Virus record (IMG/VR): IMGVR_UViG_3300044898_000091
Span: 1 to 40,682 of that record
Length of the DNA stretch: 40,682 nucleotides
Strand: one strand, 5' to 3'
From: a virus
Taxonomy: Duplodnaviria > Caudoviricetes
Part shown: piece by piece, positions 8,891 through 40,682 of the stretch
Layout: the number at the start of each line of letters is the position of its first letter
Position numbering within the stretch: the stretch's first letter is position 1
Program-made: the position numbers and the translations under genes
The notes under the pieces: generated by a model
Database searches by the model: none
What the model was told of the DNA's origin: nothing
The model's input: only the letters and a program-made list of their open reading frames with translations

Positions 8891-9150
8891 TAGAAGGTCC
8901 GACGCTCGTGCTGATTGGCAAGGAGTTGTCGGGCACGGTCGTTAGGGTTCCAAACCTTGAATTCCTCGCGCATGAAGATCGTGGTGGGACACAGAGGGTC
9001 CAGGCACCGGAACCAGCGGGAATAGTAAAAGGGCTGCTTGAGCACCTTGGAATTGATGTCCTTATGTTCCCTGACCTCGGAAGGTCCGTTGCCGCAGCGG
9101 GGACATTCGGGGCCGTTTGTTCCCATGACGATGCAGCGGTTCTTGCTCAT
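8890..9150 (-). CDS. Small Zn-ribbon-like protein
   Basis: CPRC...WFRCLDPLC; ATGA-coupled to the replication gene. Confidence 0.7.
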   Translation of the reverse strand: MSKNRCIVMGTNGPECPRCGNGPSEVREHKDINSKVLKQPFYYSRWFRCLDPLCPTTIFMREEFKVWNPNDRARQLLANQHERRTF

Positions 9151-9650
9151 GGAAGGGTAGACTTCGGGGGAAGGATGCCCCTCGAACGTAGCGTATCGCC
9201 GATGGTACGGAGATGTGTCGCATTTCGTATTTCCTCTTTAGAGGATGCTTTCTTACTTATCTTATCTTCCTTACTTCCTTTAAGGCGAGTGGTCGTCGAG
9301 GGCTCGTCGAGGATGACCCGAGGAGATGAATATTTCGGGTATTTCGGCTTCGAGGGGCGGTCGATCCGCTGGTGTTTGAAGAAGTTCTTTATGTACCAAT
9401 ACTGCTTGCCGTCATACTCGAATTTGACGATTTTGCCGATCTTCTCAAGCTCGTCGAGTAGTTCGCGAGTGTTCACCGAGTCGTATGGGAATACCTGAAT
9501 TTTTATCCAGTCTGGCCGGTCTGGCAGGGTTGCGTAATTGTCGTCGCAGATGCCCCACAGCCCCATGTAGAGCAGTCGGGCGTGGGGCGAGACTGCGCTT
9601 ACCTCTTCGTCAAGCCAGAAGTCTGGATTGAGCATTCGGTTACGCGCCAT
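9147..9650 (-). CDS. Phage replication initiator / replisome organiser (N-terminal wHTH type, short C-terminus)
   Basis: MARNRMLNPDFW.DE...ARLLYMGLW..CDD...IK.QVFPYD...NF.KHQRIDRPS family motifs. Confidence 0.8.
   Translation of the reverse strand: MARNRMLNPDFWLDEEVSAVSPHARLLYMGLWGICDDNYATLPDRPDWIKIQVFPYDSVNTRELLDELEKIGKIVKFEYDGKQYWYIKNFFKHQRIDRPSKPKYPKYSSPRVILDEPSTTTRLKGSKEDKISKKASSKEEIRNATHLRTIGDTLRSRGILPPKSTLP
9230..9325. other. Candidate replication origin inside the initiator gene
   Basis: TCGTCGAGG repeats (9293, 9304) beside a strand-asymmetric AT-rich CTTAC/CTTAT/CTTCC tract, as in lambdoid origins. Confidence 0.45.
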
Positions 9651-9652
9651 AC

Positions 9653-9725
9653 CTCACAATCATAAAAGGCAACACGCCGCCGCGAGGAAGCATGTCGCCT
9701 TTAATAAGTATGAGATTCTCGCGGC
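9653..9725 (-). promoter_or_regulatory. Structured 5' leader (pseudoknot-capable) of the replication gene
   Basis: 13-bp stem AAAGGCGACAUGC/GCGUGUUGCCUUU with G-U pairs; its loop CUCGCGGC is complementary to upstream GCCGCGAG. Confidence 0.55.
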
Positions 9726-9772
9726 TCACCACTGCATGATATCACGATGAAGAGAGGGGTCGGGACCGGTTG

Positions 9773-9781
9773 TGTGGATAA
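9773..9781. promoter_or_regulatory. Consensus DnaA box (TGTGGATAA)
   Basis: Exact reverse complement of TTATCCACA, between divergent promoters upstream of the replication gene. Confidence 0.5.
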
Positions 9782-9799
9782 GTTGCGTATACTGAATAG

Positions 9800-9901
9800 A
9801 TGGATTTCAATACCGAACGTGAACGCCAGAACATCGCCTGTTTCGTTCTAGGACTGATCAGTGGTCTTTTTATCTGGGCGCTGCACTCGCTTTTGATTTA
9901 G
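9800..9901 (+). CDS. 33-aa single-TM peptide (MDFNTERERQNIACFVLGLISGLFIWALHSLLI)
   Basis: Read by hand; ATG 6 nt after TATACT (9788-9793); 20-residue hydrophobic stretch. Confidence 0.5.
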   Translation: MDFNTERERQNIACFVLGLISGLFIWALHSLLI

Positions 9902-9976: not shown

Positions 9977-10168
9977 CTACGTGCGTGTGCCGGCGACAGT
10001 GATCCCGCCAGCTTGGTAGCGGCGAATGAGCGCCCAGAGAGCGCCACCGATGATAACGAGTGTCTGGATGGTGGTGCCGAGCGCGCCGCTGTCAACGTCG
10101 ATGCCGAGTTTCGGGAGGACGTAGACGCCTATGAGTGACGTGATGATGCCGAGGTACGTTTGTGACAT
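9977..10168 (-). CDS. Putative holin (two TM helices)
   Basis: 63 aa, two hydrophobic segments, basic C-terminus, directly after the endolysin. Confidence 0.65.
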   Translation of the reverse strand: MSQTYLGIITSLIGVYVLPKLGIDVDSGALGTTIQTLVIIGGALWALIRRYQAGGITVAGTRT

Positions 10169-10175
10169 GAATGAA

Positions 10176-11396
10176 TTAGGCCAAGAGATTCTTCATTGGC
10201 GCTTCGACCGACACGCCTATCTGCTTGGCGACATGGAGAGCGTACAAGCGCGGATTGTTACCGTCGCTTGAAGGGGCGTAGTCTTCAAAGAATTCTGTGA
10301 TGGTGCGGTCGGGATGAGCGGCGATTTTTGAGCGTACGAGATTTGTGAGATAGCGTAATCCGGTCGCGTAGTCTTTGAAGATGGCAAAGTTCTGCGGATC
10401 GCGGCCGACAACACCGTATGACGGGTCGTAGCCGACGGATGAGTATCGGCAGTTGCCGGGGTTGTTGTTGCGATAATTGCGGTCGCCCGGGCCGCCTTCG
10501 AAGTCTCGGATTGCGGTGCAGAATGCTTCGAGGAGGTCCGGTTTGGGCGCAGGAAGTACAGGAGCGGGTTGAGGAGCTGGCGGGGCTACAGGAGGCGTAT
10601 AGGCGGGTTTCTGAGGCTTCAGGAGGGCGAGCCACGCCTGTAGGACGGTTACGAGCCGTTGGAGGAATGAGACCTGCGTTTGATAGGTGGATGTCCTCAG
10701 TGCGTAGCGCTTGATGAGGTCGGGCTTGTGATCCCAGATGACCTTCTTGTGCGTGGCGTCGTAGCTGTCGAAGACTTTCCAGAATTTCCCTTCCTCATAT
10801 CCGTAGCAGCAGACCCAATGATGGTCGCCGTCGCTCGGTCCCCGGTGTATCCAAATGCCGTTTTCGTCGATGCCGTTGTAATCGACTGTCATGCCGATGG
10901 GCGAGTAGCGCAGTGCGTCCATCATGCTCGTGGAGTCGTTAGGCACCCAGTCATGCAGGAAGTCATATGTTTCGATGAACGTGTGCGCCGTGTCTGAGAC
11001 TGGCTGCGGGATCGGCGCGTAGTATTTCTCGTACGTGTCGATGTCGTCGCTAAATGGCCAGGCTTCTTCGGGCGGGCTGCCTACTTTGCGTAAGTATTCG
11101 GCCACGGTGTGCGGCGAGTTGCCGTGCAGCGTTTCGGTACCGCTGACGTTGGCAAGGAAGCGGTCTGAGTAGTTGTCGGTTCGGTTGTTGAGTTTGCGGT
11201 TGAGGATTTCGAGGCAATTCAAGGTGCCGAACGTGCAGCAGGCGAACGTCTCGATGCCCCGGATGTTTTGCAGTTCATCGTATGGAAGGTAGGCGTTCCA
11301 TTGGCCGTCCGGTTGTACCGGAGGAGCGACGATCTGCAAGTCGCCGAAGATGTAATGCTCAGGAAGGATTTTATCTTTTATGAGGCCGTAGTTCAT
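10176..11396 (-). CDS. Putative endolysin: papain-like cysteine peptidase + Pro linker + lysozyme-like domain
   Basis: Q...ACCTF, HHWVCCYGY, WKVFDSY peptidase motifs; FEGG...RNNNPGN...FAIF...YAP..DGNNP..Y C-terminal domain; flanked by small TM genes. Confidence 0.7.
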   Translation of the reverse strand: MNYGLIKDKILPEHYIFGDLQIVAPPVQPDGQWNAYLPYDELQNIRGIETFACCTFGTLNCLEILNRKLNNRTDNYSDRFLANVSGTETLHGNSPHTVAEYLRKVGSPPEEAWPFSDDIDTYEKYYAPIPQPVSDTAHTFIETYDFLHDWVPNDSTSMMDALRYSPIGMTVDYNGIDENGIWIHRGPSDGDHHWVCCYGYEEGKFWKVFDSYDATHKKVIWDHKPDLIKRYALRTSTYQTQVSFLQRLVTVLQAWLALLKPQKPAYTPPVAPPAPQPAPVLPAPKPDLLEAFCTAIRDFEGGPGDRNYRNNNPGNCRYSSVGYDPSYGVVGRDPQNFAIFKDYATGLRYLTNLVRSKIAAHPDRTITEFFEDYAPSSDGNNPRLYALHVAKQIGVSVEAPMKNLLA

Positions 11397-11605
11397 ACCA
11401 ATTTTTGGATAAGGATAAATAGAAGCGGCAGTAGGAGGACTGTAATGAGTGTGAGACCGCCCGTGATAAACCAGCGCCAGTTTTCAAGTTTGTTGACGCG
11501 GCCGTTCGTCATTTTGGCCTGCAATTTTGTCTCTTTGCCGTCGTCCCTGATTTCCTCAAGGAGCTTTTGCATTCCATCGCGGTATGTCTGTTCTTCGTTG
11601 CGCAT
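11393..11605 (-). CDS. Small membrane protein, holin/antiholin-like
   Basis: Coiled coil, TNGRVNKLENWR, single C-terminal TM; ATGA-coupled to the endolysin. Confidence 0.6.
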   Translation of the reverse strand: MRNEEQTYRDGMQKLLEEIRDDGKETKLQAKMTNGRVNKLENWRWFITGGLTLITVLLLPLLFILIQKLV

Positions 11606-11608
11606 AGT

Positions 11609-13366
11609 TCACTTTTTTTCGAGCGCGTCGATGCGTTTTGTAAGGTCGTCGATCGTGTGCTGTTGGTCTTGGACTGTCTTGACCAAGAGGGACGTGACGC
11701 CGTTGTAATCCACGCCGTTGAGGGTGCCGTGGTAATAAGAGGAAAGCACGGGATCCACCGTGTTCACGTCCTCGGCGATGAAGCCGTAACGGTTCTCGTT
11801 GCTCGCCCTGTCCGTAAAGGACACGGGATTGAGGTGCATGAGCAGATCGGAGGGGAGCGCGAGCGGCTTTATATTCTTCTTCAAGGCGCGCAACGAAGAG
11901 CAGGTTGATATGGTGTCGTAGCCCGTATTGGAGGTCGTATTATAGCAGAGCGTGTTGCCCGTAGCCGCCGCCAAGGTGAATATGCCGAATTGTCCGCTGG
12001 TATCAAAAACAGCGTAGTTGTTGCCATTAACCTGTATATTGAATTTTTGGTTCGTCCTCGTGCCAAAGAAGGCTTGGCCTGAGCTATCGGTGCCGCCGCC
12101 GAACTCAATATCATTCGTCGAGTCCCGCATCGCGAAGCGGGCATTCCCCGCGATGTTGAGATACAGCTGTGCACCGACCGTGTTGGCATCGGTGCCCGCG
12201 CCCACTTGGAGAAGGGCGCTGTTAGCGTTGGTGCAGCTGATGCAGACCGGCCCATTAGTGAAGTAGGCGGAATTGCTTACGGTCTGGGCCGTCGAGGAAG
12301 CAAACGGGGTTGTGACCGCTTGGGTCGCGCCGGCCGTCGCAAACGCCGATCCGGTGTAGTAGACGGCGTTGTTCGTCGTCGTAAATGACGTGGCGTTCGT
12401 GCCACCATTAGCAATTGGAAGAGCGGTGCCACTATAGGTCATGGCGAGAGTGCCGCTTGTCGTTATCGGGGAGCCGGATATTGAGAAGATGGAAGGGACT
12501 GATGCGGCTACGGATGAGACGGTGGCGTTAGAGGTATTGCAGGTGGAGCATCCAAACGAACCGGTCGCACCGCCGACTTGGGCGCCGATCGTGCCGGAGA
12601 ATGTGATAGGACCACTGACGCCGAGCGAAGAGGTTGCGACTCCGTATACCCCCGATGTGCCGTTAGAAACGAGGAGGTTGCTGGAAAACGGCTGCGATGT
12701 TGTTGCGAGGCCAAGCCACGATATCGCACCTCCTCCTGTAAGGACGGTATGGGCGGCACATAAGAGAGGTGCGCTGCAAGTTTCCGATGATGTGGCAATG
12801 TCTGCGAACGTATTCACGCCCGTCGAGTAATGGACACGTCCGGCGGCTAGCCCTGAGGAGGTCGCGAGACCCGCCCAGGAAATGATGGGTGCTGTACTGC
12901 CCGATGAGAGGATGGGCCATGCTCCGGTAACCGCGGTGAGGGTGCCCGTGCTTGCCGTGGTGCATGACTCTGCGTTACCGCCTGCATCGACACCCAGCGG
13001 ATAGTTCCCGGCCGAGCAATTCGTTCCGTTCGCCGCAAGTGCTGTGGCTGTTCCTGCATTACCGCTCCACGCGCCAGCAGTCGAAAGCGAGACTGCTCCG
13101 TTACTCCACGAGAGCGGTGAGCTGTAGGTGGTTGTGGCTACCCATGTCGGTGCGGCGTTTAAATAGACGAGCTGGTAACCTTGCGTGGCGGCCGTTGTGG
13201 TGCCAATTCGCGTCGTCCCGTTTCCGATCAGAAGTGTGCCTGCCTTCAGTGCTCCCCATCCCGTACCGCCCTGTGGGACTGTCGAAACGGCGAGCGCGGA
13301 GGCGAATTGGATAATACTGAATATCGTTATGAACAGAGCGACGACGAGAAGTGCAAATTTACGCAT
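11609..13366 (-). CDS. Fibre/spike-like protein with C-terminal S74 intramolecular chaperone and N-terminal signal-peptide-like sequence
   Basis: CSSLRALKKNI...LNPVSF...YGFIAEDV...VDY....LLVKTVQDQQ..I..L S74 motif; start MRKFALLVVALF... at 13366 overlaps the upstream stop by 8 nt. Confidence 0.8.
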   Translation of the reverse strand: MRKFALLVVALFITIFSIIQFASALAVSTVPQGGTGWGALKAGTLLIGNGTTRIGTTTAATQGYQLVYLNAAPTWVATTTYSSPLSWSNGAVSLSTAGAWSGNAGTATALAANGTNCSAGNYPLGVDAGGNAESCTTASTGTLTAVTGAWPILSSGSTAPIISWAGLATSSGLAAGRVHYSTGVNTFADIATSSETCSAPLLCAAHTVLTGGGAISWLGLATTSQPFSSNLLVSNGTSGVYGVATSSLGVSGPITFSGTIGAQVGGATGSFGCSTCNTSNATVSSVAASVPSIFSISGSPITTSGTLAMTYSGTALPIANGGTNATSFTTTNNAVYYTGSAFATAGATQAVTTPFASSTAQTVSNSAYFTNGPVCISCTNANSALLQVGAGTDANTVGAQLYLNIAGNARFAMRDSTNDIEFGGGTDSSGQAFFGTRTNQKFNIQVNGNNYAVFDTSGQFGIFTLAAATGNTLCYNTTSNTGYDTISTCSSLRALKKNIKPLALPSDLLMHLNPVSFTDRASNENRYGFIAEDVNTVDPVLSSYYHGTLNGVDYNGVTSLLVKTVQDQQHTIDDLTKRIDALEKK

Positions 13367-14231
13367 ATATGATCGTGAAGGGTAAAGCTGATAATTCGAC
13401 TGGCAGTGCTGTTCCAAATGTAATTGTACTACCCGCAATCGAGTAATCGGATGGATGAATGAATTGACCGTTGATAGCGAAGCTGAGGATGGTCGTAATG
13501 GTGTGCGCTGTCGTGTAAGTGGTGTTCACGCCGTCAACGGTGCCTGTCGGTGTCTCGGTGTAGATGGTTCCTAAGCTGGCGCCAGGGATGGTGACGGCAA
13601 TAACGCCGCCTCCTAAATCAGCGACGGATACGCCGGCACCGATGAAATCGAGAACCTTCACGTCAGAGGCAAGCAGGACATTCGAGCGTTGAATTGCGAG
13701 CTGCTGCGCGCCGCCCCATTTACGAAAGGCCTCGATGTTAGGACGGTCGCTGAGTTCGTCGTAAGAAATCCTGCCTCTCACTTTCGCGATGATCTGCTCC
13801 GGCGTATCGGGTGAGCCGTCTTTTCCCGGGTCGCCCTTATCGCCTTTGTCTCCCTTCGGACCGGGAATGCCTGGCTCTCCTTGTGGTCCGACAATTCCTT
13901 CTGCTTGCGGGCCTATCGGACCAACGTCACCCGTGTCGCCCTTTTCCCCTGGGTCACCCTTCTCGCCTTTTAGTCCTTTGACCGTGACGGTGTCTGCGAC
14001 GGTCTGCATGCGCTCGTCCTTCGCGGCGCTCCCTGATTTGATTGCGTCTACAATTTCTCTCTGGCCGAGGGCTATTGCTTCAAGGATTGGCTCGGGGTTG
14101 TTCTTCTCGTTCTGCTGGATGAGTGTCTCGATGCCCTTTTCGAGGTTCACGTTGTGCTGTCCGTTCTGCACGAGCAACGCTTCAAGCTCGGGCTGTGGTT
14201 GCGGGGCTTGTGGCGTGTTTTCGGGTGGCAT
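13359..14231 (-). CDS. Collagen-like repeat virion protein
   Basis: Gly-X-Y tract (GEKGDPGEKGDTG...GPKGDKGDKGDPG); C-terminal ETPTGTVDGVNTTYT beta domain. Confidence 0.8.
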   Translation of the reverse strand: MPPENTPQAPQPQPELEALLVQNGQHNVNLEKGIETLIQQNEKNNPEPILEAIALGQREIVDAIKSGSAAKDERMQTVADTVTVKGLKGEKGDPGEKGDTGDVGPIGPQAEGIVGPQGEPGIPGPKGDKGDKGDPGKDGSPDTPEQIIAKVRGRISYDELSDRPNIEAFRKWGGAQQLAIQRSNVLLASDVKVLDFIGAGVSVADLGGGVIAVTIPGASLGTIYTETPTGTVDGVNTTYTTAHTITTILSFAINGQFIHPSDYSIAGSTITFGTALPVELSALPFTIIYA

Positions 14232-14276
14232 GGTAGGGTTGTGTTGATGACATTTTTCCTTATCTGCTGTGCGGCG

Positions 14277-15551
14277 CTATTGCTGGCTTGGAAATAGCTT
14301 GTCGTAGCCCTTCTTAATCAAGCCTGCCGCCCCCACTCCTAATGGGAGTAACGCTTTTTGCGCGGCGGGTGCAGCCTTGCTGGCAACATTAGCCAAAGCT
14401 GCTGCGGCAGACCGCGCCCGCGTTCCGGCTACGAGCGGAGCTATTTGATTTCCGGTAAGGACACCTACGCCGGCACCCACGGGTCCGCCAAGTACGTTGC
14501 CTACGCCGCCGCCGACGATCGTTGAAATGATCTTGCCCAGCATTCCTACTTCGTCACGGCTTTCGGCGGCTTTGAGAAGACTGCGCGCATTGATGACTGT
14601 GCCGTACTCCTTATTGAAGTCGGCTGTGGATTTCCCCTCGATGCTTAGGCCGTCGGTTGCTGTCTCAACGTGATTTTTAAATACATTACCGATGGCGTGC
14701 TCGACATCGTCAAGAACCTTCGCACCTGCTTTGTTATACGCGCCGTCGAAAGTGCTTCGCTTCAGCTCGTTCAATCGCAAAATCGGAATCTTCTCACGTA
14801 CGAATGTTCCGGCCTTCGTGAACAGTTGCTTTGCATCGTCAACCTGTTTGACGACTGCTTGGTAGTCGCGGGAGTTCTTGAAGGTCGTTTTCAGCCCTTC
14901 GAGGTCATCGACGATAGCGCTGCGTGATGCCGAGATACCTGTGGCGGTATTGTTGGTCTTGAGGAAGTTGTGCAGCTTGTCTTCCATCGAGTTGTAGATA
15001 TCAGTAACTTGGTCGAGGCGCTGGGATGGATTTCCGATAACCTTGTTATTTAGAAGCCATTGAGTGACGCCGTTGAGCTTCTCGCCAAGGTCGCGTTTGA
15101 CGGCAGGCGTGAGCCGCAAGCTAGCTCGTTCTAGTGCGTTGGCAATTTCAGGTGCCTTCGTGATTGTTTTCGCGCCTGCGCCCAGGAACGGAATTAGGAG
15201 TTCACCGATCTGCTCTGTGTTGTAGCCCGTCTGTTGCGCGCCAGATGGCATCATAGCTGTGTTCGCCTTATCGACCACGCCTGTTAATTTGCTCTGACCC
15301 GGAAGCTGCAATCCAGCGGCAGGTAGGCCTATCGCGCTCGCGGCCATGCCGGGACCTTGTTCAACCGCCAGTTTTGCGAGGCCGGTTACATCGGAGCCGA
15401 CGCCCTTCAAGGCGCCGACCGCAAAGTTTTTTACGTTATCGAGTGCTGATGTCTGAGGTGTGGCTGTGGGTGGAACGTACGGCGTGAAGCTGGGTGTCGC
15501 TCCCGTTGCATTTTGCGGAGCTGCGGGAGGAGCGTACGGGGTGAAGGCCAT
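14277..15551 (-). CDS. Putative internal virion / DNA ejection protein
   Basis: Ala/Gly-rich helical protein with repeated N-terminal FTPY.PP and a GxxxG-rich segment; position after tail genes. Confidence 0.6.
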   Translation of the reverse strand: MAFTPYAPPAAPQNATGATPSFTPYVPPTATPQTSALDNVKNFAVGALKGVGSDVTGLAKLAVEQGPGMAASAIGLPAAGLQLPGQSKLTGVVDKANTAMMPSGAQQTGYNTEQIGELLIPFLGAGAKTITKAPEIANALERASLRLTPAVKRDLGEKLNGVTQWLLNNKVIGNPSQRLDQVTDIYNSMEDKLHNFLKTNNTATGISASRSAIVDDLEGLKTTFKNSRDYQAVVKQVDDAKQLFTKAGTFVREKIPILRLNELKRSTFDGAYNKAGAKVLDDVEHAIGNVFKNHVETATDGLSIEGKSTADFNKEYGTVINARSLLKAAESRDEVGMLGKIISTIVGGGVGNVLGGPVGAGVGVLTGNQIAPLVAGTRARSAAAALANVASKAAPAAQKALLPLGVGAAGLIKKGYDKLFPSQQ

Positions 15552-15552
15552 A

Positions 15553-17475
15553 TTAGAGTTTGGTGTACGTCAGGGCGTTGAATTCGCTTGGGGCGACGTA
15601 GCCGATTTGGCCTGTTGAATTGAGCAAGACGGGGATCTGACCGGCCGGAGTGCCTGAAATCACGTGGTTGTAATCTGCCCCTTGCGCGGTAAGCGAGCTT
15701 TCCACGAAATCGGAATCGCTTAAGTTGCCCTTCGGTGTGCCGGTGCCCATGCTTGATGCGCCGTTGGGGTCGGTCTGTCCGCCTTGCGTGTAGTATTCGG
15801 AGACCTTGTTGCGTACACGGCCGCCGAGCTGGTCGATGGTCGCGTTGAATGTGGTGTTGCCGTATTTCAGATTGACGAGGCTGATGCCGAGTTGCGTCGT
15901 GAAGTCCGAACCGGCTGAACCGCCGAGAAGTTTACCTGCCTCATCGCCGGCAATGGTCGCAAGCTGTACGAGCTTCGCGGCGTTCGGGTCACTGGTGCCT
16001 GCGGCAAGTCCGATCTGGCCTCCATTGAGGATGGTGATGCTACCGCGAGGTACTTTATCCGAGAGGGCTTTAATCTGGTCGAGCGTATTTAAGACAGTAT
16101 TGGAGTTGGCGATAAACGTCTGTGTGGCAGGACTCTTGAAGAACGCATACTGAGCGGCGGCGTTCGCCGGGGTCCATCCCGGGATGAGCGCCCTGATACG
16201 TGCGCCCGCCTGGTCGAGCTGTCCGGGATATTTGAATTTAGATAGAGAAGGTTGCCCCGTCTGCGCGTAGGCAAGGTCTGACGTGGTCAGCTTGTCGTAG
16301 GGATTAGATATCGTTCCAGTCGGCGGGATAGCAGGTGTAATCGTTTTTGTAGGTGCTGCTGTGCTCGCATCTGAAGGAAGTCCTGTACTTGCAGGCGTGG
16401 GAGTTTTCGGTTGTGAGCCTGTGCCCGCGACTTGCGGGCCGGCGCGTTGAACCACCTGTAAGGCTCCTGTGAGTGGGTCATGCGTAACTGAATCAGATAC
16501 TTTCTGGTTCGCCTTCTGCGAATTCCAATCAGCAAGCGAGCCCGTGTAGCCGTCGTTCTGGACAGCGTATTGGTATTCTTTGAGCGCTGAGTCGGGTGTC
16601 GCTGTTCCTTGCTGTACCTGCGTGAGCGTGCCGTCTGCGCCGACGCGGTAGCTGTTATCGGTGAGCGGAATGCTTGTGAGGTTCGCCTTCTGGGCTGCGG
16701 CTGCGCTGTTCTTCGCGCTCACATATGAAGACACAAGGGCGTCAGGCGCAATTTGGTAGCTGCTGGCGATCGCCTTGATGTCGTCCGGCGACGCGGTTGT
16801 GAGGTCTATACCTGCTGCCAGCGCGCGCTGCGCCGCGTCGGTGGTGCGTGACGTTCGGCGTTGGTCCTGTGTTGAAAGGAAGCTGATGTAGTCGCTTGCG
16901 CTCTGCTGCTTGACCGCGTTCTTTGCGGCGATCTCTTGCTGCGCGAGAGCGTTCCCTTTGTCTGTTATGCTCGCAATTGCTGCTGCTTGCTCATCGCCTA
17001 TGCCTGAATAGACGGCTTTGTTATCGTCCTCGACCTTTGTATTTGCTGCTGCTCCGAAGTCCGAACCAAGAAGGCCGCGGCGCGCTGATATCGCGGCATT
17101 GGAGCCGAGGTTATTATTTCCTACGATCTGGGCTTGTCGGAGCTTTTCCGCATACACGGAGTTCGTTGCGTCTATTTCCGCTTGCAATTGCTTGGTGACG
17201 TTATCGCGGATGGCCTGTTCATCGACCGGAGCCTGTGAAGCATCACGATAGACGCCGACTGCGGTGTTGATGGCTTGGTCGTCGGGCGTGAGGCTGCCGT
17301 ACAGGTCTTTAATGGTGAGGGGTGACGGCGTGCCGGGCTGTGTTGTAGGAGTTGGTGTTGAGCCAGGTGTCGCAGTTGGGGTAGCGGGCGCATACGGTTG
17401 ACCCGTCTTTGCATTAATGGTCGTGCCATTGTTGTCGTAGACCTGATCTGCCCCGATGTTGTAGATGCCAGCCAT
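15553..17475 (-). CDS. Putative internal virion / DNA ejection protein
   Basis: Coiled-coil A/Q-rich, ARRGLLGSDFG and KEYQYAV..GY.GS motifs seen in podovirus ejection proteins. Confidence 0.65.
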   Translation of the reverse strand: MAGIYNIGADQVYDNNGTTINAKTGQPYAPATPTATPGSTPTPTTQPGTPSPLTIKDLYGSLTPDDQAINTAVGVYRDASQAPVDEQAIRDNVTKQLQAEIDATNSVYAEKLRQAQIVGNNNLGSNAAISARRGLLGSDFGAAANTKVEDDNKAVYSGIGDEQAAAIASITDKGNALAQQEIAAKNAVKQQSASDYISFLSTQDQRRTSRTTDAAQRALAAGIDLTTASPDDIKAIASSYQIAPDALVSSYVSAKNSAAAAQKANLTSIPLTDNSYRVGADGTLTQVQQGTATPDSALKEYQYAVQNDGYTGSLADWNSQKANQKVSDSVTHDPLTGALQVVQRAGPQVAGTGSQPKTPTPASTGLPSDASTAAPTKTITPAIPPTGTISNPYDKLTTSDLAYAQTGQPSLSKFKYPGQLDQAGARIRALIPGWTPANAAAQYAFFKSPATQTFIANSNTVLNTLDQIKALSDKVPRGSITILNGGQIGLAAGTSDPNAAKLVQLATIAGDEAGKLLGGSAGSDFTTQLGISLVNLKYGNTTFNATIDQLGGRVRNKVSEYYTQGGQTDPNGASSMGTGTPKGNLSDSDFVESSLTAQGADYNHVISGTPAGQIPVLLNSTGQIGYVAPSEFNALTYTKL

Positions 17476-17476
17476 A

Positions 17477-19039: not shown

Positions 19040-19062
19040 AAAGGGTTCTGCCCCGTACGGGG

Positions 19063-19071
19063 ATTATAGCA
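19063..19071 (-). promoter_or_regulatory. Extended -10 promoter TGCTATAAT
   Basis: Perfect consensus in the intergenic gap, followed by a CCCCGTACGGGG palindrome. Confidence 0.65.
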
Positions 19072-19078
19072 TATGTAA

Positions 19079-21016: not shown

Positions 21017-21017
21017 A

Positions 21018-22338: not shown

Positions 22339-22357
22339 AATGTTTTAATTTATGCGA

Positions 22358-33785: not shown

Positions 33786-34047
33786 TGTACTCGTCTCCGA
33801 GCATCAATGTGATCGACCGCTGCCCGGCAAACATTCCGATGCGCCAGTAGAAAAGGCAATCGGCGTACTCGAACACTCCCTCGCTGTGGTCATCCATCGT
33901 GAAGTGCGCCGCCTGGCTCATGCGGTAGAGCGCCCGGCCGCGCATTTGAGGCGGGAGCGCGTAGACCGACGGCGACATGAGAACGATGCCGCCGATAAAT
34001 TCCGAACGGAGCAGGTCGTTGACGCGGATGGCTGTCGCTTGGTCCAT
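33748..34047 (-). CDS. DUF3768-like protein
   Basis: NDLLR..FIGG.VLMSPSV.AL...DHSEG.F......YWRI......ITLML.DEY. Confidence 0.65.
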   Translation of the reverse strand: MDQATAIRVNDLLRSEFIGGIVLMSPSVYALPPQMRGRALYRMSQAAHFTMDDHSEGVFEYADCLFYWRIGMFAGQRSITLMLGDEYITLVAAPDICRK

Positions 34048-34323: not shown

Positions 34324-34914
34324 CTACGCTGTTCGCTTCGGTATGGCGACCACGTTAGAGACTGGCAGTTGCCATTTGGACGGGAGCTTTTCGATTTCCG
34401 TCAGGCCGATGTAGCCGACCAATGTTCCATCTTCGAGACGAATAGGAACGGCGATGGTGCCGCGCATCAGTCCTTTGCCCGCGTAGCCGATTCCGAGAGC
34501 TTGTGCGGTTTCGGCGTCGAACCCGAGCACCTGCACCGCGTCGTGGGAATGCTCCAAGTAGTCTAGCGGCTTCATGCCGCCTGCTGTCGCCGCCTGCGGT
34601 TTCGGCGCTTCTTCCTGCTTCGGCGTTGCGATGCGGAAATGTTCTGCGAGTTCTTGCGCCGCCTCTCGTTGGCTTACTCCTCGGATGTGAGCAACGAGCG
34701 AAATTTGGTCACCGCCCTTGCCTTCCGAAAAGCAATAATAGGAGGACTTCGATACGTTCACAGCCAGTGCCCGTTCTCCACCGTTGCGGCAAGAGGGACA
34801 TGCCGAGCGGAGTTGGTCGTTGCCCTTCATTCGAAGGTCGAGCATTTGGACGCACAGAGCGATACTCACCTTTTCCTTAAGCTGGGCGAAGTCGATGAAA
34901 TCTTTGCCGGCCAT
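34324..34914 (-). CDS. CHC2-type primase zinc-finger protein without TOPRIM domain
   Basis: IDFAQLKEKVSI...CPSC...YYCFS...GGDQISLVAH; AAGGAG SD. Confidence 0.8.
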   Translation of the reverse strand: MAGKDFIDFAQLKEKVSIALCVQMLDLRMKGNDQLRSACPSCRNGGERALAVNVSKSSYYCFSEGKGGDQISLVAHIRGVSQREAAQELAEHFRIATPKQEEAPKPQAATAGGMKPLDYLEHSHDAVQVLGFDAETAQALGIGYAGKGLMRGTIAVPIRLEDGTLVGYIGLTEIEKLPSKWQLPVSNVVAIPKRTA

Positions 34915-35098: not shown

Positions 35099-35353
35099 AT
35101 GAGTACGGATACGGACACGCGCCCTGTGCGGCGTGGTCAACAGCAGAACGAGCCACGGCCCATCGCATTTTATGTGCGAGCCAAAACGGGTCCCGGCCCG
35201 CGTGACTGGTCGCCAGTCGGCGTTTGTTTTGCCCGGAAGAACAATGCTCCGGGTTTTACAATCAAGCTCAACACGCTTCCGATCACCGGCTGGAACGGAG
35301 CGATGGTTCTCGTTCCCCCGTTCGCGGACGACGACGAACCTATCGACGAATAG
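35099..35353 (+). CDS. Small acidic-tailed protein (DUF736-like, possible ssDNA-binding)
   Basis: W..VG..F......GFTIKLN.LP...W.G..VL.PP + DDDEPIDE tail. Confidence 0.6.
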   Translation: MSTDTDTRPVRRGQQQNEPRPIAFYVRAKTGPGPRDWSPVGVCFARKNNAPGFTIKLNTLPITGWNGAMVLVPPFADDDEPIDE

Positions 35354-35772: not shown

Positions 35773-36798
35773 TTACTTTGCTCCCAACTCCGCAAGAATA
35801 TCAAGCGGCGGATGCCCTACCCGTTGCCACGGCTCTGTCAGCATGAAGCCCGTAGGCTTCGGGAAATGGTCGATGGATGCGAACTCGCGGACAAATTTGA
35901 ATGCGATGTGCTTCGAGCCTTCGCCGGCCGTGCGGTCTTCTAAAAGAAGCATCATTTGTTTCATGACGTACTCGCTTGTTGTGACAAACAGAGTGACGGG
36001 GGTGGGAATGCCGAGTAGCCGCTGGTAAGTGCGGTGCTTGTGCAGTTCAAGCGCGGCAATAATTTTTTCATTGTGAGTCTGCCGACCAGCTACTTTTCCA
36101 GGATTGTTGTCTTCTGTATTGCGATCGACCTCGATGCCGGCGATGAACAGGCGGGCTGTCTTGCCACCTTCGGGCGTGTACGCGATTGCGAACGGCTTGG
36201 TGTCGTGGACGATGTTTCGGTCAACCTCGACTAGCCTGTTATAGGGGTGCGGGGTTCGGTAATTGAATTGCGCGGGAAAATGAAAGGGTGTCGGCGAGCG
36301 TTTCGTCTCAAGCGGGCAGGACGGATGCGCGAGGATATCGCGGTAGGCAACCAGCGAGAGGCCAGGTGTATCCTTCACGCCGATAGCGAACGAGGCTTCC
36401 GTGATGCAGCGCGCGGACTTGTGCTTGATATGGTCATTACCGCGTGCAATGGGCCAGTACAGTCCCGCTTCAGCGAGCATCTGTTCGCCGCGCTCCGTGA
36501 GTGAGTAAATTGCCGCACGTGAGCGTGCGCGGTCGGATTGCCATGAACTAGGCGGACATTCGATAACGCCGGCCTCATGTCTGAGGTCGGTGAGTCGGCG
36601 GAAAAAGTGGCCGCGCGGCGTTCCTTTCGGCGTGTAGGTAATGCGTGCGCCGAGCATGATGGCCATGTACACGCTCGGCAGGCACTCATAGGTCTGCAAC
36701 AGGTCAAGAATGCGAAGGGTAAGCGGCGTTTTATAAATGATCCCCCCACGCGGGGTGTTGTCGGTGCGTGAATATCCCTTTGGTGTTTTCTTCAACAT
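35773..36798 (-). CDS. Replication-relaxation (Replic_Relax-like) protein
   Basis: N-terminal wHTH (RRLTDLRH...IYSLTERGEQML), HIKH, and IEVDRNTE motif; next to coupling ATPase. Confidence 0.75.
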   Translation of the reverse strand: MLKKTPKGYSRTDNTPRGGIIYKTPLTLRILDLLQTYECLPSVYMAIMLGARITYTPKGTPRGHFFRRLTDLRHEAGVIECPPSSWQSDRARSRAAIYSLTERGEQMLAEAGLYWPIARGNDHIKHKSARCITEASFAIGVKDTPGLSLVAYRDILAHPSCPLETKRSPTPFHFPAQFNYRTPHPYNRLVEVDRNIVHDTKPFAIAYTPEGGKTARLFIAGIEVDRNTEDNNPGKVAGRQTHNEKIIAALELHKHRTYQRLLGIPTPVTLFVTTSEYVMKQMMLLLEDRTAGEGSKHIAFKFVREFASIDHFPKPTGFMLTEPWQRVGHPPLDILAELGAK

Positions 36799-36804
36799 AT
36801 AGCT

Positions 36805-36841
36805 GAATGCGGCCGCGTTCGCCTTCTGTCAACGTTGACAG
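36805..36841. promoter_or_regulatory. Two tandem palindromes upstream of the relaxase-like gene (operator or oriT candidate)
   Basis: GAATGCGGCCGCGTTC (36805-36820) and perfect CTGTCAACGTTGACAG (36826-36841). Confidence 0.5.
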
Positions 36842-36907
36842 TGAGGAGCTGCGGGTAATGGCGATGAAGTATGAAGCGCGATGAGGCGCGCAATAATTAT
36901 ACCATCG

Positions 36908-38806
36908 CTACCACTTGGTTGAGACGATAGAACCATCATCCTCGGGAGGTTTTGGCGAGCGTGCGGGCTTTGATGTTTTGGGCTGGGACGGAACGGTCGC
37001 AGGCGGCGACTGGAAGGTCGGCGGCAACGGCTTTGAGGGCAACTCTTGGAGCGATAGCCGCTCGGCGTTGGCGCGCAACATCCTTCCGAGCGCTTCCCTG
37101 CTCATCTGCGGCTGCCGATCAATCTCGCCGAACGGCGCGGAATGGACGAAGGGATGCTGTGTGAAGCCTCGGACAAAGCAGGCAAAGCGGGCTTCTGTCG
37201 ATGTCTTACTCTGCGCGGTGAGGAATGACGGTTCGCAACGGAGATCCCGCGCGACATAGGAGAGGTCTACCCCCTCGGGGCTTGAGGCGTATTTGATGGT
37301 GGTGTTGGTCGAGACGGCCGAGCGTATTTTTTCCGTCATCCCCGACCCGTGCATCTCCTGATGGGCCATTGTGACAGCAAGATTGTACTCTCGGGCGAGC
37401 CGCAACAGCTCTGGCGTCTTTTCCTCGTCGGCGAACTCCTGAAATTCGTCAATGATGAGATGAGCCTGATGCCATTCGTTTCGGGGAAGCGTGAAGCGGG
37501 CATAGGCGGCATTGAGCGTAAGGGAGATCATGTAACGCCCGAGGAGCTGCGAGGCGTCTGAACCCAGTGTGTTCATGCCGGTGTTGACCAGCACGATTGA
37601 TTTGTTCTGCAAGCAGTCGAGCATATCAAGCTTGCGTTCCCTCGCCTCGAACATGCGGACAAATTCCGGGTGTTGCAACACGCCGTAGATGCGGGCTTTT
37701 ATTTGCTGGCGCGTCTCCTTGTAGTTGGAGCTGAAGAACTCGTTGCGGAAGAAACGCTCCGAAGTTACGTCCAGGCGACCGATGAACGGGGCAAAACGGC
37801 ACTGGGAATACGGCTGACCCTTGGGGTCATCCGTGCGCGTCGGGTCGTCCATCAAGTCTATGAGCGTGTGGATGTTCGATTCCATCCCGAACATGAGCCG
37901 GACTGCAAAGCCGAACGGTGTGGTCTGCTTGTCGGTGAGTTTGGAGCCGGTGCTTGAGAAAATGAAAGCGAACGTGCTTATCGCTTGGTTCTCGACGCGC
38001 CGCCGCTGCTCGACCGACCATATTTGATTCCAGCGCGATGCGGCGTGGAACATATTGAGCGCAGGCGGCGGGTCATAGGTGGGGTCTATGACAACAAGGC
38101 GGTCTTTGAGACGGCCGGTATCAGGATTGAAAACGTCGAGCGATTGCAGCCGCTCGACCATCAAGCCCTTCGGGTCGATGATGACCATGCCGGGCGGGTC
38201 GTCCTTCGCCAAGTCTGCGAGGATCAATTGCTGGAGTAGCGTCGTTTTTCCTGAGCCGCTTGGGCCAAGAATGTGCGTGTGCTCTTGGCGGAAATGGTCG
38301 GGAATGGGACGCGCTGTGATGAGTTCAAGCTGCGCAACGCGCTCCTGTTCAAGTATTGCCTCCTCCTCCTTCCGTGCTCGATGTTCCTGCTGGTGATGAG
38401 CATAGCAGATATCACTCATTTCTCGGACAGCATGAGTGATAGCCGCAGACCTTCGGCGCGCCCAATCATCTTCGAAGTGCGTAACAATGCGTTGCTGCGT
38501 TTCGTCCCACTCCTTCAACTCTGCGAGTTCTTCATTCGAGTAGAGGCGACCGTCGGGGAAAAAGCGGCGGCGGGCGGCGCGATAATCATCAATCAATGAC
38601 TTGTATGACCGGTCATCCCCTATCGTCTTTCCCAGCGCCAGCTCCGCGGGCATGTGACGGTTCAACTCGCTTTCCATGCAAGTGTCGGAGCAGAAAAAGA
38701 ACAGCTCCCACGATGCCATCTTGCCTTCGAGCGTGAGGCCGTACTGCGACTCAAATATGCGAGGTGGGCCGCCGCAATGAGCACATCTGTCGGGCTTGAA
38801 GCGCAT
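36908..38806 (-). CDS. VirD4/TraD-like (FtsK-HerA superfamily) coupling ATPase
   Basis: HTHILGPSGSGKTT Walker A, IIDPKG, LIIDEFQEF Walker B, AREYNLAVTMAHQ; N-terminal Cys cluster, no TM helix. Confidence 0.88.
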   Translation of the reverse strand: MRFKPDRCAHCGGPPRIFESQYGLTLEGKMASWELFFFCSDTCMESELNRHMPAELALGKTIGDDRSYKSLIDDYRAARRRFFPDGRLYSNEELAELKEWDETQQRIVTHFEDDWARRRSAAITHAVREMSDICYAHHQQEHRARKEEEAILEQERVAQLELITARPIPDHFRQEHTHILGPSGSGKTTLLQQLILADLAKDDPPGMVIIDPKGLMVERLQSLDVFNPDTGRLKDRLVVIDPTYDPPPALNMFHAASRWNQIWSVEQRRRVENQAISTFAFIFSSTGSKLTDKQTTPFGFAVRLMFGMESNIHTLIDLMDDPTRTDDPKGQPYSQCRFAPFIGRLDVTSERFFRNEFFSSNYKETRQQIKARIYGVLQHPEFVRMFEARERKLDMLDCLQNKSIVLVNTGMNTLGSDASQLLGRYMISLTLNAAYARFTLPRNEWHQAHLIIDEFQEFADEEKTPELLRLAREYNLAVTMAHQEMHGSGMTEKIRSAVSTNTTIKYASSPEGVDLSYVARDLRCEPSFLTAQSKTSTEARFACFVRGFTQHPFVHSAPFGEIDRQPQMSREALGRMLRANAERLSLQELPSKPLPPTFQSPPATVPSQPKTSKPARSPKPPEDDGSIVSTKW

Positions 38807-39177
38807 TAGAGGTCAAACGACTCTTTGTTTCCGGTCGTTTTATTGCCGTCTATAAAATCTTTCAGAGCTTTTATGTGCTCGCGTGCTTCCGTGGCAAAAT
38901 TCTTTGCTCCGAGAGGGGTTGGGAAGGGCGGTTCGATACCTTTACACAACCTGCGCACATCATATTTGTGCGTCTCGCTCATTATTTCTCGATCCCGTTC
39001 GGTAGCTGACTTCCAGTAGGGATTTGGGTGATTTATAACTACGTACTTCCATAAATCCCGCTGTTGCACGATTTCATTTTCTTCGGGAGAAAGGGTTACG
39101 CGTAACTTGACCACAAATCGTCGAACCCCACTAAATAACCCGCCGCCTGCTGTCGTATGCTCGATCTCGACGTGCAT
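38806..39177 (-). CDS. Hypothetical protein coupled to the ATPase gene
   Basis: TAATG overlap with ATPase start; GAGGGG SD. Confidence 0.75.
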   Translation of the reverse strand: MHVEIEHTTAGGGLFSGVRRFVVKLRVTLSPEENEIVQQRDLWKYVVINHPNPYWKSATERDREIMSETHKYDVRRLCKGIEPPFPTPLGAKNFATEAREHIKALKDFIDGNKTTGNKESFDL

Positions 39178-39194
39178 GGAGAATCCCCTCTATG

Positions 39195-39226
39195 AAAAAG
39201 GGGCGCGGCTTGGACCCCGCGCCCCT
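39195..39226 (-). terminator. Intrinsic terminator after excisionase
   Basis: GGGGCGCGG/CCGCGCCCC stem followed by T5. Confidence 0.65.
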
Positions 39227-39230
39227 GCTC

Positions 39231-39452
39231 CTATTGAGCATTCCAGTCTTCAGTCACGTTCAGGCCGTGTTTTTCGAAGTAGGCCAGCACATCTGCCACC
39301 CGCCAGACACGGCGAGAGTTATGGTGGCCCCCGAGCTTGAAGCTCTTAGGATACCTGCCATCGTGCTCTCCTCGATCTGTTTCGGCTCTGCAAAACGGCC
39401 AGCCCATCAATCGCAGTTTTTTCCAGTCCACTACTAGAGGCTTGATTGACAT
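39231..39452 (-). CDS. AlpA-like excisionase
   Basis: R.E.DGRYPKSFKLG.....RVWRVADVLAY; adjacent to integrase; GGAG SD before ATG 39452. Confidence 0.75.
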   Translation of the reverse strand: MSIKPLVVDWKKLRLMGWPFCRAETDRGEHDGRYPKSFKLGGHHNSRRVWRVADVLAYFEKHGLNVTEDWNAQ

Positions 39453-39539
39453 TACAATGCTCCGTCGTCGGAGCGTTGCAACGCCACCAGTTTCCACTAG
39501 CGAGCGGCCGATGGCCGCAGTGAGAGACTATGAGGAGTC

Positions 39540-40682
39540 TTACTCTGCCGCAAGCTGCACATAGCTCTCCATAGCGCCTACAGAGGCCAAAATAACCCCT
39601 AGGCGCTGCTCCCACTTGGCAAGGGCTTCCCGCTTTTCCGGCAGGTAGTCATAGCGGTCATAGATTTCATCAAGTTCGGTCTTACCGCCGCCCGTCACGT
39701 GATTGAGCAGGATTTCGCAAACCTCTCTTGATACGCGAAGCTTCGCCATATTCGACCGGAACGTGCGCCGCAAGTCTCGCACCTGCCAGTCTGAAACACC
39801 CGAAGCCTTGTCGAGTTCTTTCTTAAGCTTGCCCCACGAGCCGTCATTGAAGTGGCTGTACGGCCCGACGTTGCCCGGAAAGTAGTAGTCCCCTTCTTCG
39901 GGCTGCTCGTCGAGGATTGCCCGCGCCATCGGCAGCAGCGGGATTGAGTGCGAGCGGCCGTTCTTGGTGAACTTACCGGGGATGGTCAGTAAGTCCTCAT
40001 CAACCCATGTGCGCCTAATGCGGGCGGTCTCGCCGTTGCGGGTGCCCCACAGGATGAGCAGTCGTATCATCGCGCCGAACTGGCCCTCGCAGGCGCGCCA
40101 GATTTTCGCGAGTTCCTTATCGGTCATAACGCGGTCGCCCTTCCTGTCCTCTCCTGGGGGCGCGTAGCCCTCAAGCGGGCTGTGCTTGATGTACCGATGC
40201 GGCGGTCGGGTACACCATCGGAAGAATGTTCGGTGAGCGCGGAAGGCGTGAAGCTGCTCGCTCGGGACGCGGGCGAGCGTGTCGAACTGGCGTTTGAGGT
40301 CGTCGTCGGTGATATCCGGGAGCGGTCTCTTTTGCAGCTCTGGAAACTTGCCCAAGAGCCGTTCAGCCTCGGACTTGCTGCGCGGTTTCTTGCCCTTGTA
40401 GTTCTCCTCCAAAAAGAGAGGGACAGCAGTCTCGAAGGTGAGGCTCGTGGCCTTCGGAGCGTAGGGGCTTCCCAAAGCGATGAGAGCCTGCTTGCGGGCA
40501 TCCGCGAGCGGGAGGTCGGGGTAATGCCCCAGCTTCAATTTGGTGCTGTGTATGCCCTTGAGAACGATCCACGTGCGGCGATGGGTGCCGACGCGCAGGC
40601 CGAATGCCGGCGTCTTGGTATCAAAGTACGTGCCCGGTTTGAGGCTGCGGACTGACAGATCGGTGAAGGCTACCTTCGGCAT
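39540..40682 (-). CDS. int: Tyrosine integrase with N-terminal arm-binding domain
   Basis: WGTRNGE, TKNG, RDLRRT, ILLNH, YDRY catalytic motifs; FGLRVG arm domain. Confidence 0.95.
   Translation of the reverse strand: MPKVAFTDLSVRSLKPGTYFDTKTPAFGLRVGTHRRTWIVLKGIHSTKLKLGHYPDLPLADARKQALIALGSPYAPKATSLTFETAVPLFLEENYKGKKPRSKSEAERLLGKFPELQKRPLPDITDDDLKRQFDTLARVPSEQLHAFRAHRTFFRWCTRPPHRYIKHSPLEGYAPPGEDRKGDRVMTDKELAKIWRACEGQFGAMIRLLILWGTRNGETARIRRTWVDEDLLTIPGKFTKNGRSHSIPLLPMARAILDEQPEEGDYYFPGNVGPYSHFNDGSWGKLKKELDKASGVSDWQVRDLRRTFRSNMAKLRVSREVCEILLNHVTGGGKTELDEIYDRYDYLPEKREALAKWEQRLGVILASVGAMESYVQLAAE

Follow-up and report, generated by a model that had tools for sequence, protein, structure and literature searches.

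The DNA analyzed here (hereafter the window) is a stretch of 40,682 nucleotides that makes up the whole of virus record IMGVR_UViG_3300044898_000091, classed as a provirus, in which a tailed-phage gene set adjoins a backbone encoding an integrase, a relaxase-like protein of the Replic_Relax type and a coupling-type ATPase resembling VirD4 and TrwB. Comparison with related sequences reveals a recurring fusion of a backbone of the kind found in integrative and mobilizable elements (IMEs) with phage late genes, a combination that is new in this form so far as our searches reach, while its parts are known. With a probability of about 0.5, the window is a member of this IME-phage fusion family that likely spreads as virions and also by a predicted, helper-dependent form of conjugation.

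That the backbone and the phage half form a single element, a conclusion we hold with near certainty, is well supported because one pair of attachment (att) sites surrounds both halves in four relative chromosomes (handles such as G550 and L144 are our own). The enclosed units measure 44,499 (G550), 40,328 (G296:C5), 47,324 (G609) and 40,701 (G668) bases, and their att repeats, 39-48 bases long, lie at the end of a tRNA-Arg or tRNA-Gly gene. Each unit has a single integrase, and no third copy of the att core, of the kind that a prior interpretation of the DNA letters alone (the sequence-only reading) had named as the mark of two adjacent elements, was found in any of the four. In G025, the phage early genes are followed by 46 bases with an ungapped alignment to the 3' half of a tRNA-Lys and then by the integrase, an order that may represent the layout of an excised circle; the ends of the G025 contig showed no overlap.

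Within the window itself, a search for attL and attR recovered neither a tRNA nor a terminal repeat. The record begins at a stop codon and finishes at the start codon of the integrase gene, and has thus been cut back to gene ends, such that the earlier description of a complete genome cannot be demonstrated from it. The genes placed between 9147 and 40,682 are indeed there, and the element runs on to the left of 9147, where it includes a degenerate VirD4-like gene. The relaxase-like protein of the window is on record within a 56,274-base contig. Sequencing depth is even (8-10.5) across both halves in run X1, a possible source of the record and therefore not an independent one, and a second soil study yielded approximately 90%-identical pieces of both halves, among which a single contig bridging the halves was not found. 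The host of the window, a soil prophage, is likely Bradyrhizobium-like, as judged from a 75% relaxase relative named Bradyrhizobium and from 55-61% integrase identity to islands of that genus.

Profile matches and structural comparison confirmed the Replic_Relax-like gene, the VirD4/TraD-like ATPase, the primase-type zinc finger, the integrase and the virion genes at the places where the sequence-only reading had put them. From right to left on the minus strand, the order is integrase, AlpA-like open reading frame (ORF), 123-amino-acid (aa) ORF, ATPase, Replic_Relax-like gene, CHC2 gene and DUF3768-like ORF, followed by a plus-strand resolvase, XRE regulator, VRR-NUC nuclease, terminases, portal, capsid, tail and lysis genes, a short initiator and the early genes. 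The claim that all genes share one strand holds for most of them; six plus-strand ORFs, the resolvase included, lie within 29.4-35.8 kb. The backbone features are as follows.

39540 to 40682, minus strand: tyrosine integrase with arm-binding domain (PF13356, PF00589, phrog_1); the record stops at its start codon.
39231 to 39497, minus strand: small AlpA/excisionase-like ORF, so labeled by position.
38806 to 39177, minus strand: 123-aa ORF upstream of the ATPase, 36% identical in G011, lacking a transmembrane segment.
36908 to 38806, minus strand: ATPase A, VirD4/TrwB-like, matching PF10412.
36799 to 36907, minus strand: conserved intergenic stretch, a candidate promoter/operator or origin of transfer (oriT), with TGGTATAAT and two short inverted repeats.
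35773 to 36798, minus strand: Replic_Relax-like protein of 341 aa (PF13814 homologues, Atlas, winged helix-turn-helix).
35099 to 35353, plus strand: 84-aa ORF between the relaxase and zinc-finger genes, conserved in the window, G011, G012 and G021.
34324 to 34914, minus strand: CHC2 zinc-finger protein of the DnaG N-terminal type (PF01807, 41.6 bits), without a catalytic domain.
33748 to 34047, minus strand: DUF3768-like small ORF, 25-48% identical to same-position ORFs elsewhere.
31848 to 32399, plus strand: small serine resolvase (PF00239, 143 bits).
31275 to 31634, minus strand: XRE-family regulator (PF01381).

Backbone genes lie ahead of phage packaging or late genes in 13 further records (G001, G002, G011, G012, G021, G023, G024, G025, L144, G550, G296:C5, G609 and G668), a set composed of virus records, one metagenome locus and chromosomes, from which G026 and L119, both copies of G025, and G022, which holds only tail- and lysis-like remnants, were left out. 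These records show that the association of virion genes with the backbone is no accident of neighboring sequence. Their capsids range from 95% identical to unrelated and represent several head types. G001 ends just beyond its zinc-finger gene and has the resolvase, XRE regulator and zinc finger in common with the window. In G022:C1 4431-16086 (L103, L110), the backbone is followed by tail-fibre-like and lysis-like genes only, together with a cut zinc-finger gene, in keeping with decay or partial capture. The possibility that homologous phages would consistently lack the module proved half correct: low-GC phages of the capsid family are without it, while the window's own clade carries it.

An ATPase search of 15 virus records matched three, two of which had been fetched by means of the ATPase, such that one of 13 capsid-selected records matched. 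An ATPase profile scan returned nine viral loci, and the metagenome profile scan, a sample of 21 of 64 parts, returned 19 metagenome loci that could not be extended; a first metagenome scan with a single ATPase sequence gave no match. As matches from virus collections are biased toward phage cargo, chromosomes were examined. In a sample of 251 genomes from Methylobacter's phylum, four matched a relaxase profile, as did 25 of the 401 genomes of a single genus. That genus is presumably Bradyrhizobium, since its center genome, G082, encodes an ATPase identical to a protein bearing this name. Seventeen stretches were taken from 16 of those 25 genomes: three carry head-tail genes and 14 do not, four of the latter being short or cut. 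A capsid profile matched five of the 401 genomes, at full length only in G550, itself part of the profile, and G668, the other three matches being short and inside other proteins. G668, found by the capsid profile alone, also carries the backbone.

The same backbone, although the sequence-only reading did not mention this, occurs in tRNA-integrated, phage-free islands with att pairs of their own, measuring 42,826 (G561), 37,473 (G319) and 34,648 or 38,426 (G632) bases and carrying restriction, methylase and NTPase cargo. The island coordinates are G561:C2 131375-174201, G319:C3 6831715-6869188, G632:C3 19843/23621-58269 and G547:C35 about 39150-77010. At approximately 35-43 kb these four cases lie near the 40-47 kb of the proviruses, possibly reflecting a packaging-size limit and satellite-like use of related capsids. 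Other cargo includes a tryptophan-dioxygenase-like/B3-4 protein beside a class I (W/Y) tRNA-synthetase-like gene in G561 (L216:8575-11518), a large RHS-repeat protein with an SpvB-type N-terminal domain in G319 (L218:15627-20000), and a BglII-type endonuclease with an MT-A70 methylase at the far end of the G550 provirus (L224:7943-9394). Phage-linked ATPases are scattered among the island copies in a quick tree, and therefore fusion or loss occurred several times; this tree and that of the capsids are both quick searches with long branches. When G012 is compared with the window, the lysin (89%), resolvase (96%), VRR-NUC nuclease (93%) and ATPase core (87%) are far closer than the capsid (30%) and integrase (39%), a pattern of module exchange within one pool. 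G011:C1 18094-19900 holds an AlpA-like gene 98% identical to that of the window and then a different, oppositely oriented integrase beside tRNA-Phe, consistent with replacement of the integrase.

ATPase A exceeds the PF10412 cut-off (35.4 versus 20.5 bits), its match to the VirB4 family in the profile scan is weak and far below cut-off, and its Walker A (GPSGSGKT) and Walker B (LIIDEFQ) motifs are intact. A Foldseek search with its predicted model (pLDDT 86.5) ranks TrwB best (E 9e-12; TM-score 0.61, by target), followed by HerA (1e-8) and VirB4 (8e-8); a PDB sequence search with the ATPase profile gave 0 matches. As the sequence-only reading had observed, the N-terminal membrane anchor is absent, the top 19-residue hydropathy being 0.94, and a Cys-rich segment and long helix occupy the place where it would be. 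Anchors are kept on the ATPases of G002, L130, L140 and L145, and G002 holds two tandem ATPases, one with an anchor. The ratio of nonsynonymous to synonymous substitution rates (dN/dS) for ATPase A is 0.077 against G011. Among 50,697 GenBank phages, ATPase A had one match, at 22%, and neither the relaxase, the capsid nor the portal of the window had any. A Methylomagnum plasmid carries a 35% relative of ATPase A together with a replication-relaxation gene and a CHC2 finger; this 35-kb plasmid (L101, NZ_AP019788.1) is typed as non-mobilizable, and typing tools may overlook this relaxase subfamily. Docking of ATPase A to a type IV secretion system (T4SS) and delivery of a substrate are its predicted role. 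The 56 ORFs of the window, scanned against Pfam, include no VirB mating-pore family, as anticipated, and VirB4-family genes were found in three of five host genomes tested (G550, G609 and G561).

A second VirD4-like gene (paralogue B) lies inside the phage early region of the window, G001, G012, G024, G025, G550, G609 and G668. The window copy (6162-6941) has lost the Walker lysine and acidic pair, and its kinship to ATPase B is significant by profile comparison (hhalign probability 98.7%, E 2.6e-16) and not by pairwise BLAST. Its dN/dS is 0.114 against G012.

The window Replic_Relax protein alone scores 17.5 bits against PF13814, under the cut-off of 25.3. Its membership is supported by 24 of its 30 aligned homologues, which match PF13814 (E<=0.01), by the orthologues of G550, G561, L144 and L129, which exceed the cut-off, and by an Atlas assignment to Replic_Relax (0.96 by features, TM 0.77 by structure). 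Residues 20-113 align with a MarR-type winged helix-turn-helix (Z 8.4, rmsd 2.2, 78 aligned); Foldseek gave no match for the relaxase model at E<=0.001, the wide search covering the helix-turn-helix part only. In the literature, MOBC enzymes are described as combining a winged helix-turn-helix with a restriction-enzyme-like acidic center (PMC12857230, PMC6736028), Replic_Relax is placed in the PD-(D/E)XK superfamily (PMC3424549), and PF13814 is listed as a MobC relaxase class paired with VirD4 in streptococcal IMEs (PMC5357655). Among 25 relatives, drawn as orthologues from whole elements and islands, D199 (25/25), E223 (25/25), D225 (24/25) and E229 (20/25) are conserved, as is H126 (24-25/25); the acidic residues represent a DEE-type metal-binding center with putative counterparts in TraX. 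TraX requires a tyrosine for transfer (PMC6736028). Column 249, four residues past a conserved lysine, is tyrosine in 21 of the 25 relatives and in eight of 12 phage-fused copies; the window, G011 and G012 have alanine there and G296 has isoleucine, all four being phage-fused. Y258 is present in 16 of 25, and column 249 and Y258 are candidate counterparts of TraX Y181. The relaxase dN/dS, 0.18 against G011, is the highest measured.

The phage half of the element comprises the following features.

30408 to 30719, minus strand: VRR-NUC nuclease, the first phage-type gene past the backbone (PF08774, phrog_93).
27830 to 29373, minus strand: small and large terminase (PF04466, 73.6 bits; TIGR01547 below cut-off; small subunit by position).
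25388 to 27385, minus strand: SU10-type portal (PF23899, 55.4 bits).
21709 to 24368, minus strand: scaffold-like, major capsid (22358-23557) and decoration-like genes, the scaffold and decoration labels by position.
11609 to 21653, minus strand: adaptor-, nozzle- and ejection-like genes, so labeled from gene order and size, and tail-fibre genes (PF13884, PF01391, tail-fibre PHROGs).
9977 to 11605, minus strand: lysis cassette, two small membrane proteins flanking a peptidase-plus-lysozyme-like protein (phrog_873, Atlas).
9147 to 9650, minus strand: replication-initiator N-terminal domain, 167 aa (phrog_1408, positions 1-140 of 302).
6162 to 6941, plus strand: second VirD4-like ATPase (paralogue B), degenerate (hhalign).
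1556 to 9150, minus strand: phage early genes of the same element (two YopX, Erf, a single-stranded DNA-binding protein (SSB)-like ORF and a helix-turn-helix protein).

The capsid of the window has no direct Pfam or PHROG match and owes its name to a 27% relative, that of G550, which matches phrog_267; with the terminase and portal families, it marks the window as a member of the Caudoviricetes. The SU10-type portal and the lack of a siphovirus-type tape-measure gene in the tail block, together with the provisional nozzle and ejection labels, would be compatible with podovirus morphology. A 645-aa protein of the tail block has 1547 database relatives. The large terminase (27830-29125) is merely 29-30% identical to those of G001 and G002, yet the portal (97% and 75%) and small terminase (80% and 69%) are close, indicating a swap within a conserved head module. 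The replication set, which the sequence-only reading had called intact, retains the initiator domain, Erf and the SSB-like ORF; catalytic domains of a helicase or primase were not seen in the element. Compared with G001, six head-tail genes have dN/dS of 0.03-0.15 at dS 0.2-1.1, the portal at 0.028 and the capsid at 0.042. Like the ATPase, the head-tail genes are under purifying selection, which gives indirect support to the production of infectious virions and most likely acted after the fusion because G001 also carries backbone genes.

With respect to the origin of these genes, a Patescibacteria affinity emerged that was absent from the sequence-only reading. A search with the window capsid recovered 60 viral loci and five GTDB contigs. 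Three of the latter are titled Patescibacteria, and the remaining two are short low-GC contigs in other bins. Identity is 95% to G001, 76% to G002 and 54-67% in the five GTDB contigs. The window, G001, G002 and the 4-kb fragment L002 form a capsid clade (support 99) nested among low-GC members. GC content at third codon positions (GC3) of the capsid gene is 59-77% in the backbone-bearing phages, 59-76% across the clade and 76% in L002, inside the clade, versus 14-38% in the others. The G017 capsid gene is part of a 42-kb prophage that is flanked by housekeeping genes in a genome of 0.7 Mb; the prophage has a small integrase and no backbone nearby, and the VirD4-like genes of that genome are more than 200 kb away. 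This Patescibacteria prophage (G017:C1 about 267600-309000) also holds a glycosyltransferase-like gene block and two tRNA genes. A capsid profile matched three of 301 Patescibacteria genomes, one by construction, and a relaxase profile gave one weak match among the 301, a true PF13814 protein of another subfamily. The second portal type matched 0 of the 301, a scan with no positive control, and cultured phages of many hosts include 31% relatives of the third head type; a Patescibacteria origin is therefore supported for the window lineage only.

Under the preferred reading of a fused IME and phage, the element would integrate at a tRNA 3' end as a single 40-47 kb unit, as it does in four relatives; the backbone integrase would then excise a circle holding both halves, and the circle would be packaged in virions, as purifying selection suggests. 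By homology, the MOBC-type protein is predicted to nick the origin and the ATPase to couple to a type IV channel supplied in trans. Historically, a resident island backbone of Bradyrhizobium type may have repeatedly acquired late-gene blocks, those of the window lineage presumably coming from a phage family otherwise found in Patescibacteria, with the backbone providing integration and maintenance in the new host. The idea of two routes, put forward in the sequence-only reading, is reasonable given the predicted TrwB-like fold and the listing of PF13814 as a MobC class, and we put the chances of a working conjugal route at roughly even. The significance of the family lies in a recurring tRNA-integrated provirus that encodes its own relaxase-like protein and coupling-type ATPase. 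Complete copies reside in large Bradyrhizobium-genus chromosomes, two of which have VirB4 genes, making the proposal directly testable. The family further connects a large group of uncultured phages with a genus that can be cultivated, and it suggests that genes have flowed from phages of Patescibacteria to Alphaproteobacteria.

Several points weigh against this reading. Conjugal transfer, nicking and virions are here predictions from genes. ATPase A, lacking the N-terminal anchor, resembles a coupling protein in its fold but is non-canonical, the second ATPase is degenerate in the window, and the window lineage is without the tyrosine that 21 of 25 relatives keep, the equivalence of which to the TraX tyrosine is putative. 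VirB4 was not found in G296 and G668, genomes that may be incomplete. The att sites and host of the window are invisible in its record, and Rfam did not call the tRNA fragment of G025. A similar pair is also present in Tyroviruses, where its region is called plasmid-like (PMC9703825). Finally, with neither a helicase nor a primase encoded by the element, its backbone may instead be retained for replication.

This last point leads to a possible, though on balance doubtful, alternative in which the Replic_Relax protein, a soluble ATPase and the zinc finger replicate or maintain the excised circle of one fused element that spreads by virions only, with nick-initiated replication, DNA pumping and primase recruitment replacing phage replication genes unfit for the new host. 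The anchorless ATPase, the thin phage replication set, HerA as the next-best fold, the loss of the candidate tyrosine in four phage-fused copies and the linkage of PF13814 to plasmid replication (PMC3424549, PMC9703825) all suit such an account; the E-value of TrwB is nevertheless three orders better than that of HerA, several orthologues retain an anchor, the phage-fused G002 among them, the tyrosine is kept in eight of 12 phage-fused copies, and an ArdC anti-restriction gene lies between the backbone and terminase of G002 (G002:C1 13759-14616, L074). Loss of the anchor and tyrosine, the degenerate second ATPase and the comparatively high relaxase dN/dS of 0.18 could also be taken to mean that the pair is the leftover of an ancestral island, carried along with the integrase in this lineage and used for neither transfer nor replication. 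We judge this improbable, as all frames are open, the Walker motifs and acidic residues are retained, and dN/dS is 0.08 for the ATPase, 0.18 for the relaxase and 0.11 for the degenerate copy at dS 0.7-1.2. An island and a prophage lying side by side, or an assembly join, would account for the 14 of 17 Bradyrhizobium-genus stretches in which the backbone has no phage genes, for the occurrence of the capsid family without the backbone, and for a resolvase near the junction in a record with no visible att sites. Such a two-element account is largely refuted in relatives by the single att pair and single integrase of four chromosomes, and the interleaving of the second ATPase in the phage early region, the same gene order in 14 records and the even depth in the possible source run leave it with almost no likelihood.

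A bolder proposal, unlikely in our judgment, is that the provirus family crosses a phylum boundary by cell contact, the MOBC relaxase and VirD4-like ATPase moving Patescibacteria-type phage genomes between ultrasmall epibionts and Bradyrhizobium-type hosts, in whose tRNA genes the proviruses would rest, with virions being produced inside the epibiont or targeting it. If this is true, Bradyrhizobium would count among the hosts of Patescibacteria, whose type IV system would gain a DNA substrate. Applied to the window, the element would rest in Bradyrhizobium and pass through cell contact to or from attached Patescibacteria, where its virions would be made, a version that we regard as distinctly unlikely. 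Patescibacteria possess T4SSs (PMC12857230), the capsid clade is nested among Patescibacteria-resident and low-GC phages, and a quick tree places paralogue B as the sister group of ATPases from Patescibacteria (support 96). No Patescibacteria genome was found with both backbone and phage, however, the relaxase profile having one weak match in 301 and the second portal type none, while the G017 prophage has another integrase and no backbone nearby; the raised GC3 of backbone-bearing phages likewise fits long residence in a high-GC host. The lysis cassette of the window has no spanin pair, its lipobox scan being empty, and none was found in the seven cassettes listed, two of which have M23 peptidase lysins; these traits would suit a cell without an outer membrane, but the spanin scan lacked a positive control, the control region having held no lysis cassette. 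Shine-Dalgarno motifs precede four of 70 head-tail genes versus 53 of 166 host ORFs (with crude ORF starts), yet many alphaproteobacterial genes lack such motifs. Finally, a promoter-like TGnTAnAAT-type motif occurs 30 times in four proviruses versus 10.9 expected and once in 232 kb of host flanks versus 4.9 expected; its reading as a signature of Patescibacteria is not supported by the count in the Patescibacteria flanks tested, with 12 occurrences versus 22.9 expected.

In the window, this motif type is found 10 times versus 3.4 expected, nine of the 10 outside long ORFs. The shared promoter-like sequence noted earlier, TGGTATAAT, is exact at both 36896-36904 and 30007-30015, and with at most one mismatch it has nine matches versus 3.4 expected, a number reached in two of 100 shuffles. 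The intergenic stretch at 36799-36907 is near-identical in the window, G011 and G012 and not in G021; its folding as a candidate oriT hairpin is no better than that of shuffles (z -1.6). Two inverted-repeat pairs (34276-34291/35390-35405 and 35418-35436/35749-35767), each including or beside a promoter-like motif, bracket small plus-strand ORFs between the relaxase and zinc-finger genes, an inner cassette that varies among relatives in the manner of a cargo slot; the 84-aa ORF at 35099-35353 has no Pfam match. As to the earlier label int/xis, the integrase is secure by its Pfam domains and is 61% identical to that of G082 and 55% to that of G609, both Bradyrhizobium-genus islands. The ORF at 39231-39497 is without a Pfam match and is presumably an excisionase, a label we take from position and a resemblance to AlpA; it is 98% identical in G011, and homologues adjoin the integrase at many loci. 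Same-position counterparts of the DUF3768-like ORF in G012, G561 and G319 match PF12599, which the window ORF does not. The resolvase is 84-98% identical in G001, G002, G011, G012, G021, G024 and G668. Toward the left end, 587-1603 (plus strand) encodes a TIR-domain-like protein (PF13676, below cut-off) with a strong Shine-Dalgarno motif, likely defence cargo, and a 24-base inverted repeat in an early-gene gap (8541-8564/8665-8688; 96% complementary, 100 bases apart) is a possible origin or operator.

With respect to known systems, IMEs are defined by an integrase and a relaxase, an optional coupling protein and no T4SS (PMC5357655), and the window encodes an integrase, a relaxase-like protein and a coupling-type ATPase with no T4SS; flanking direct repeats, absent from the trimmed window, are present in G550, G296:C5, G609 and G668 and in the phage-free G561, G319 and G632. 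A phage-plasmid is not indicated, as none of the 56 ORFs matches a partition (Par) or plasmid Rep family, the record is a provirus and its relatives are chromosomal. A literature search, judged by title and abstract and covering few subscription papers, found no description of a backbone-phage fusion family. Streptococcal IME class 8 shares the compact coupling protein-relaxase-integrase module, the lack of a T4SS and site-specific integration; it has a serine integrase and no virion genes (PMC5357655), whereas the window family has a tyrosine integrase acting at tRNA ends, an anchorless ATPase, a CHC2 finger and a full late-gene block. TraX of pAD1 and MobC of CloDF13 share the N-terminal winged helix-turn-helix and restriction-enzyme-like acidic center, from which the window protein differs in its very distant sequence, in the missing candidate essential tyrosine of its subgroup and in an oriT that is a candidate only.

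The assertion that tailed phages do not normally carry such a pair is weakened by the published Tyroviruses, in which a type IV secretion protein adjoins a replication-relaxation gene in a plasmid-like region (PMC9703825), and in phage Izhevsk a Replic_Relax gene lies beside ParM (PMC7685451). The Bacillus Tyroviruses and Izhevsk are, like the window phage, tailed and temperate bearers of a replication-relaxation gene; the Tyrovirus pair adjoins ParM/ParG-like genes and is read as plasmid-derived (PMC9703825), whereas the window family has no partition genes, integrates into chromosomes, and has the same backbone both with several head types and as phage-free islands. The G017 prophage and the low-GC phages G003, G004, G008, G009 and G010 share the head-tail gene order of the window, with capsids 54-67% identical, and differ in having no backbone, a GC3 of 14-38% and, in G017, another integrase. 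Lastly, the idea of prophage genomes moving across lineages by conjugation is shared with the Hodor conjugative megaplasmids (bioRxiv 10.64898/2026.02.21.707213); those are plasmids of more than 300 kb that encode a T4SS themselves and carry the prophage as a separable passenger, whereas the window family is one 40-47 kb unit with no pore.

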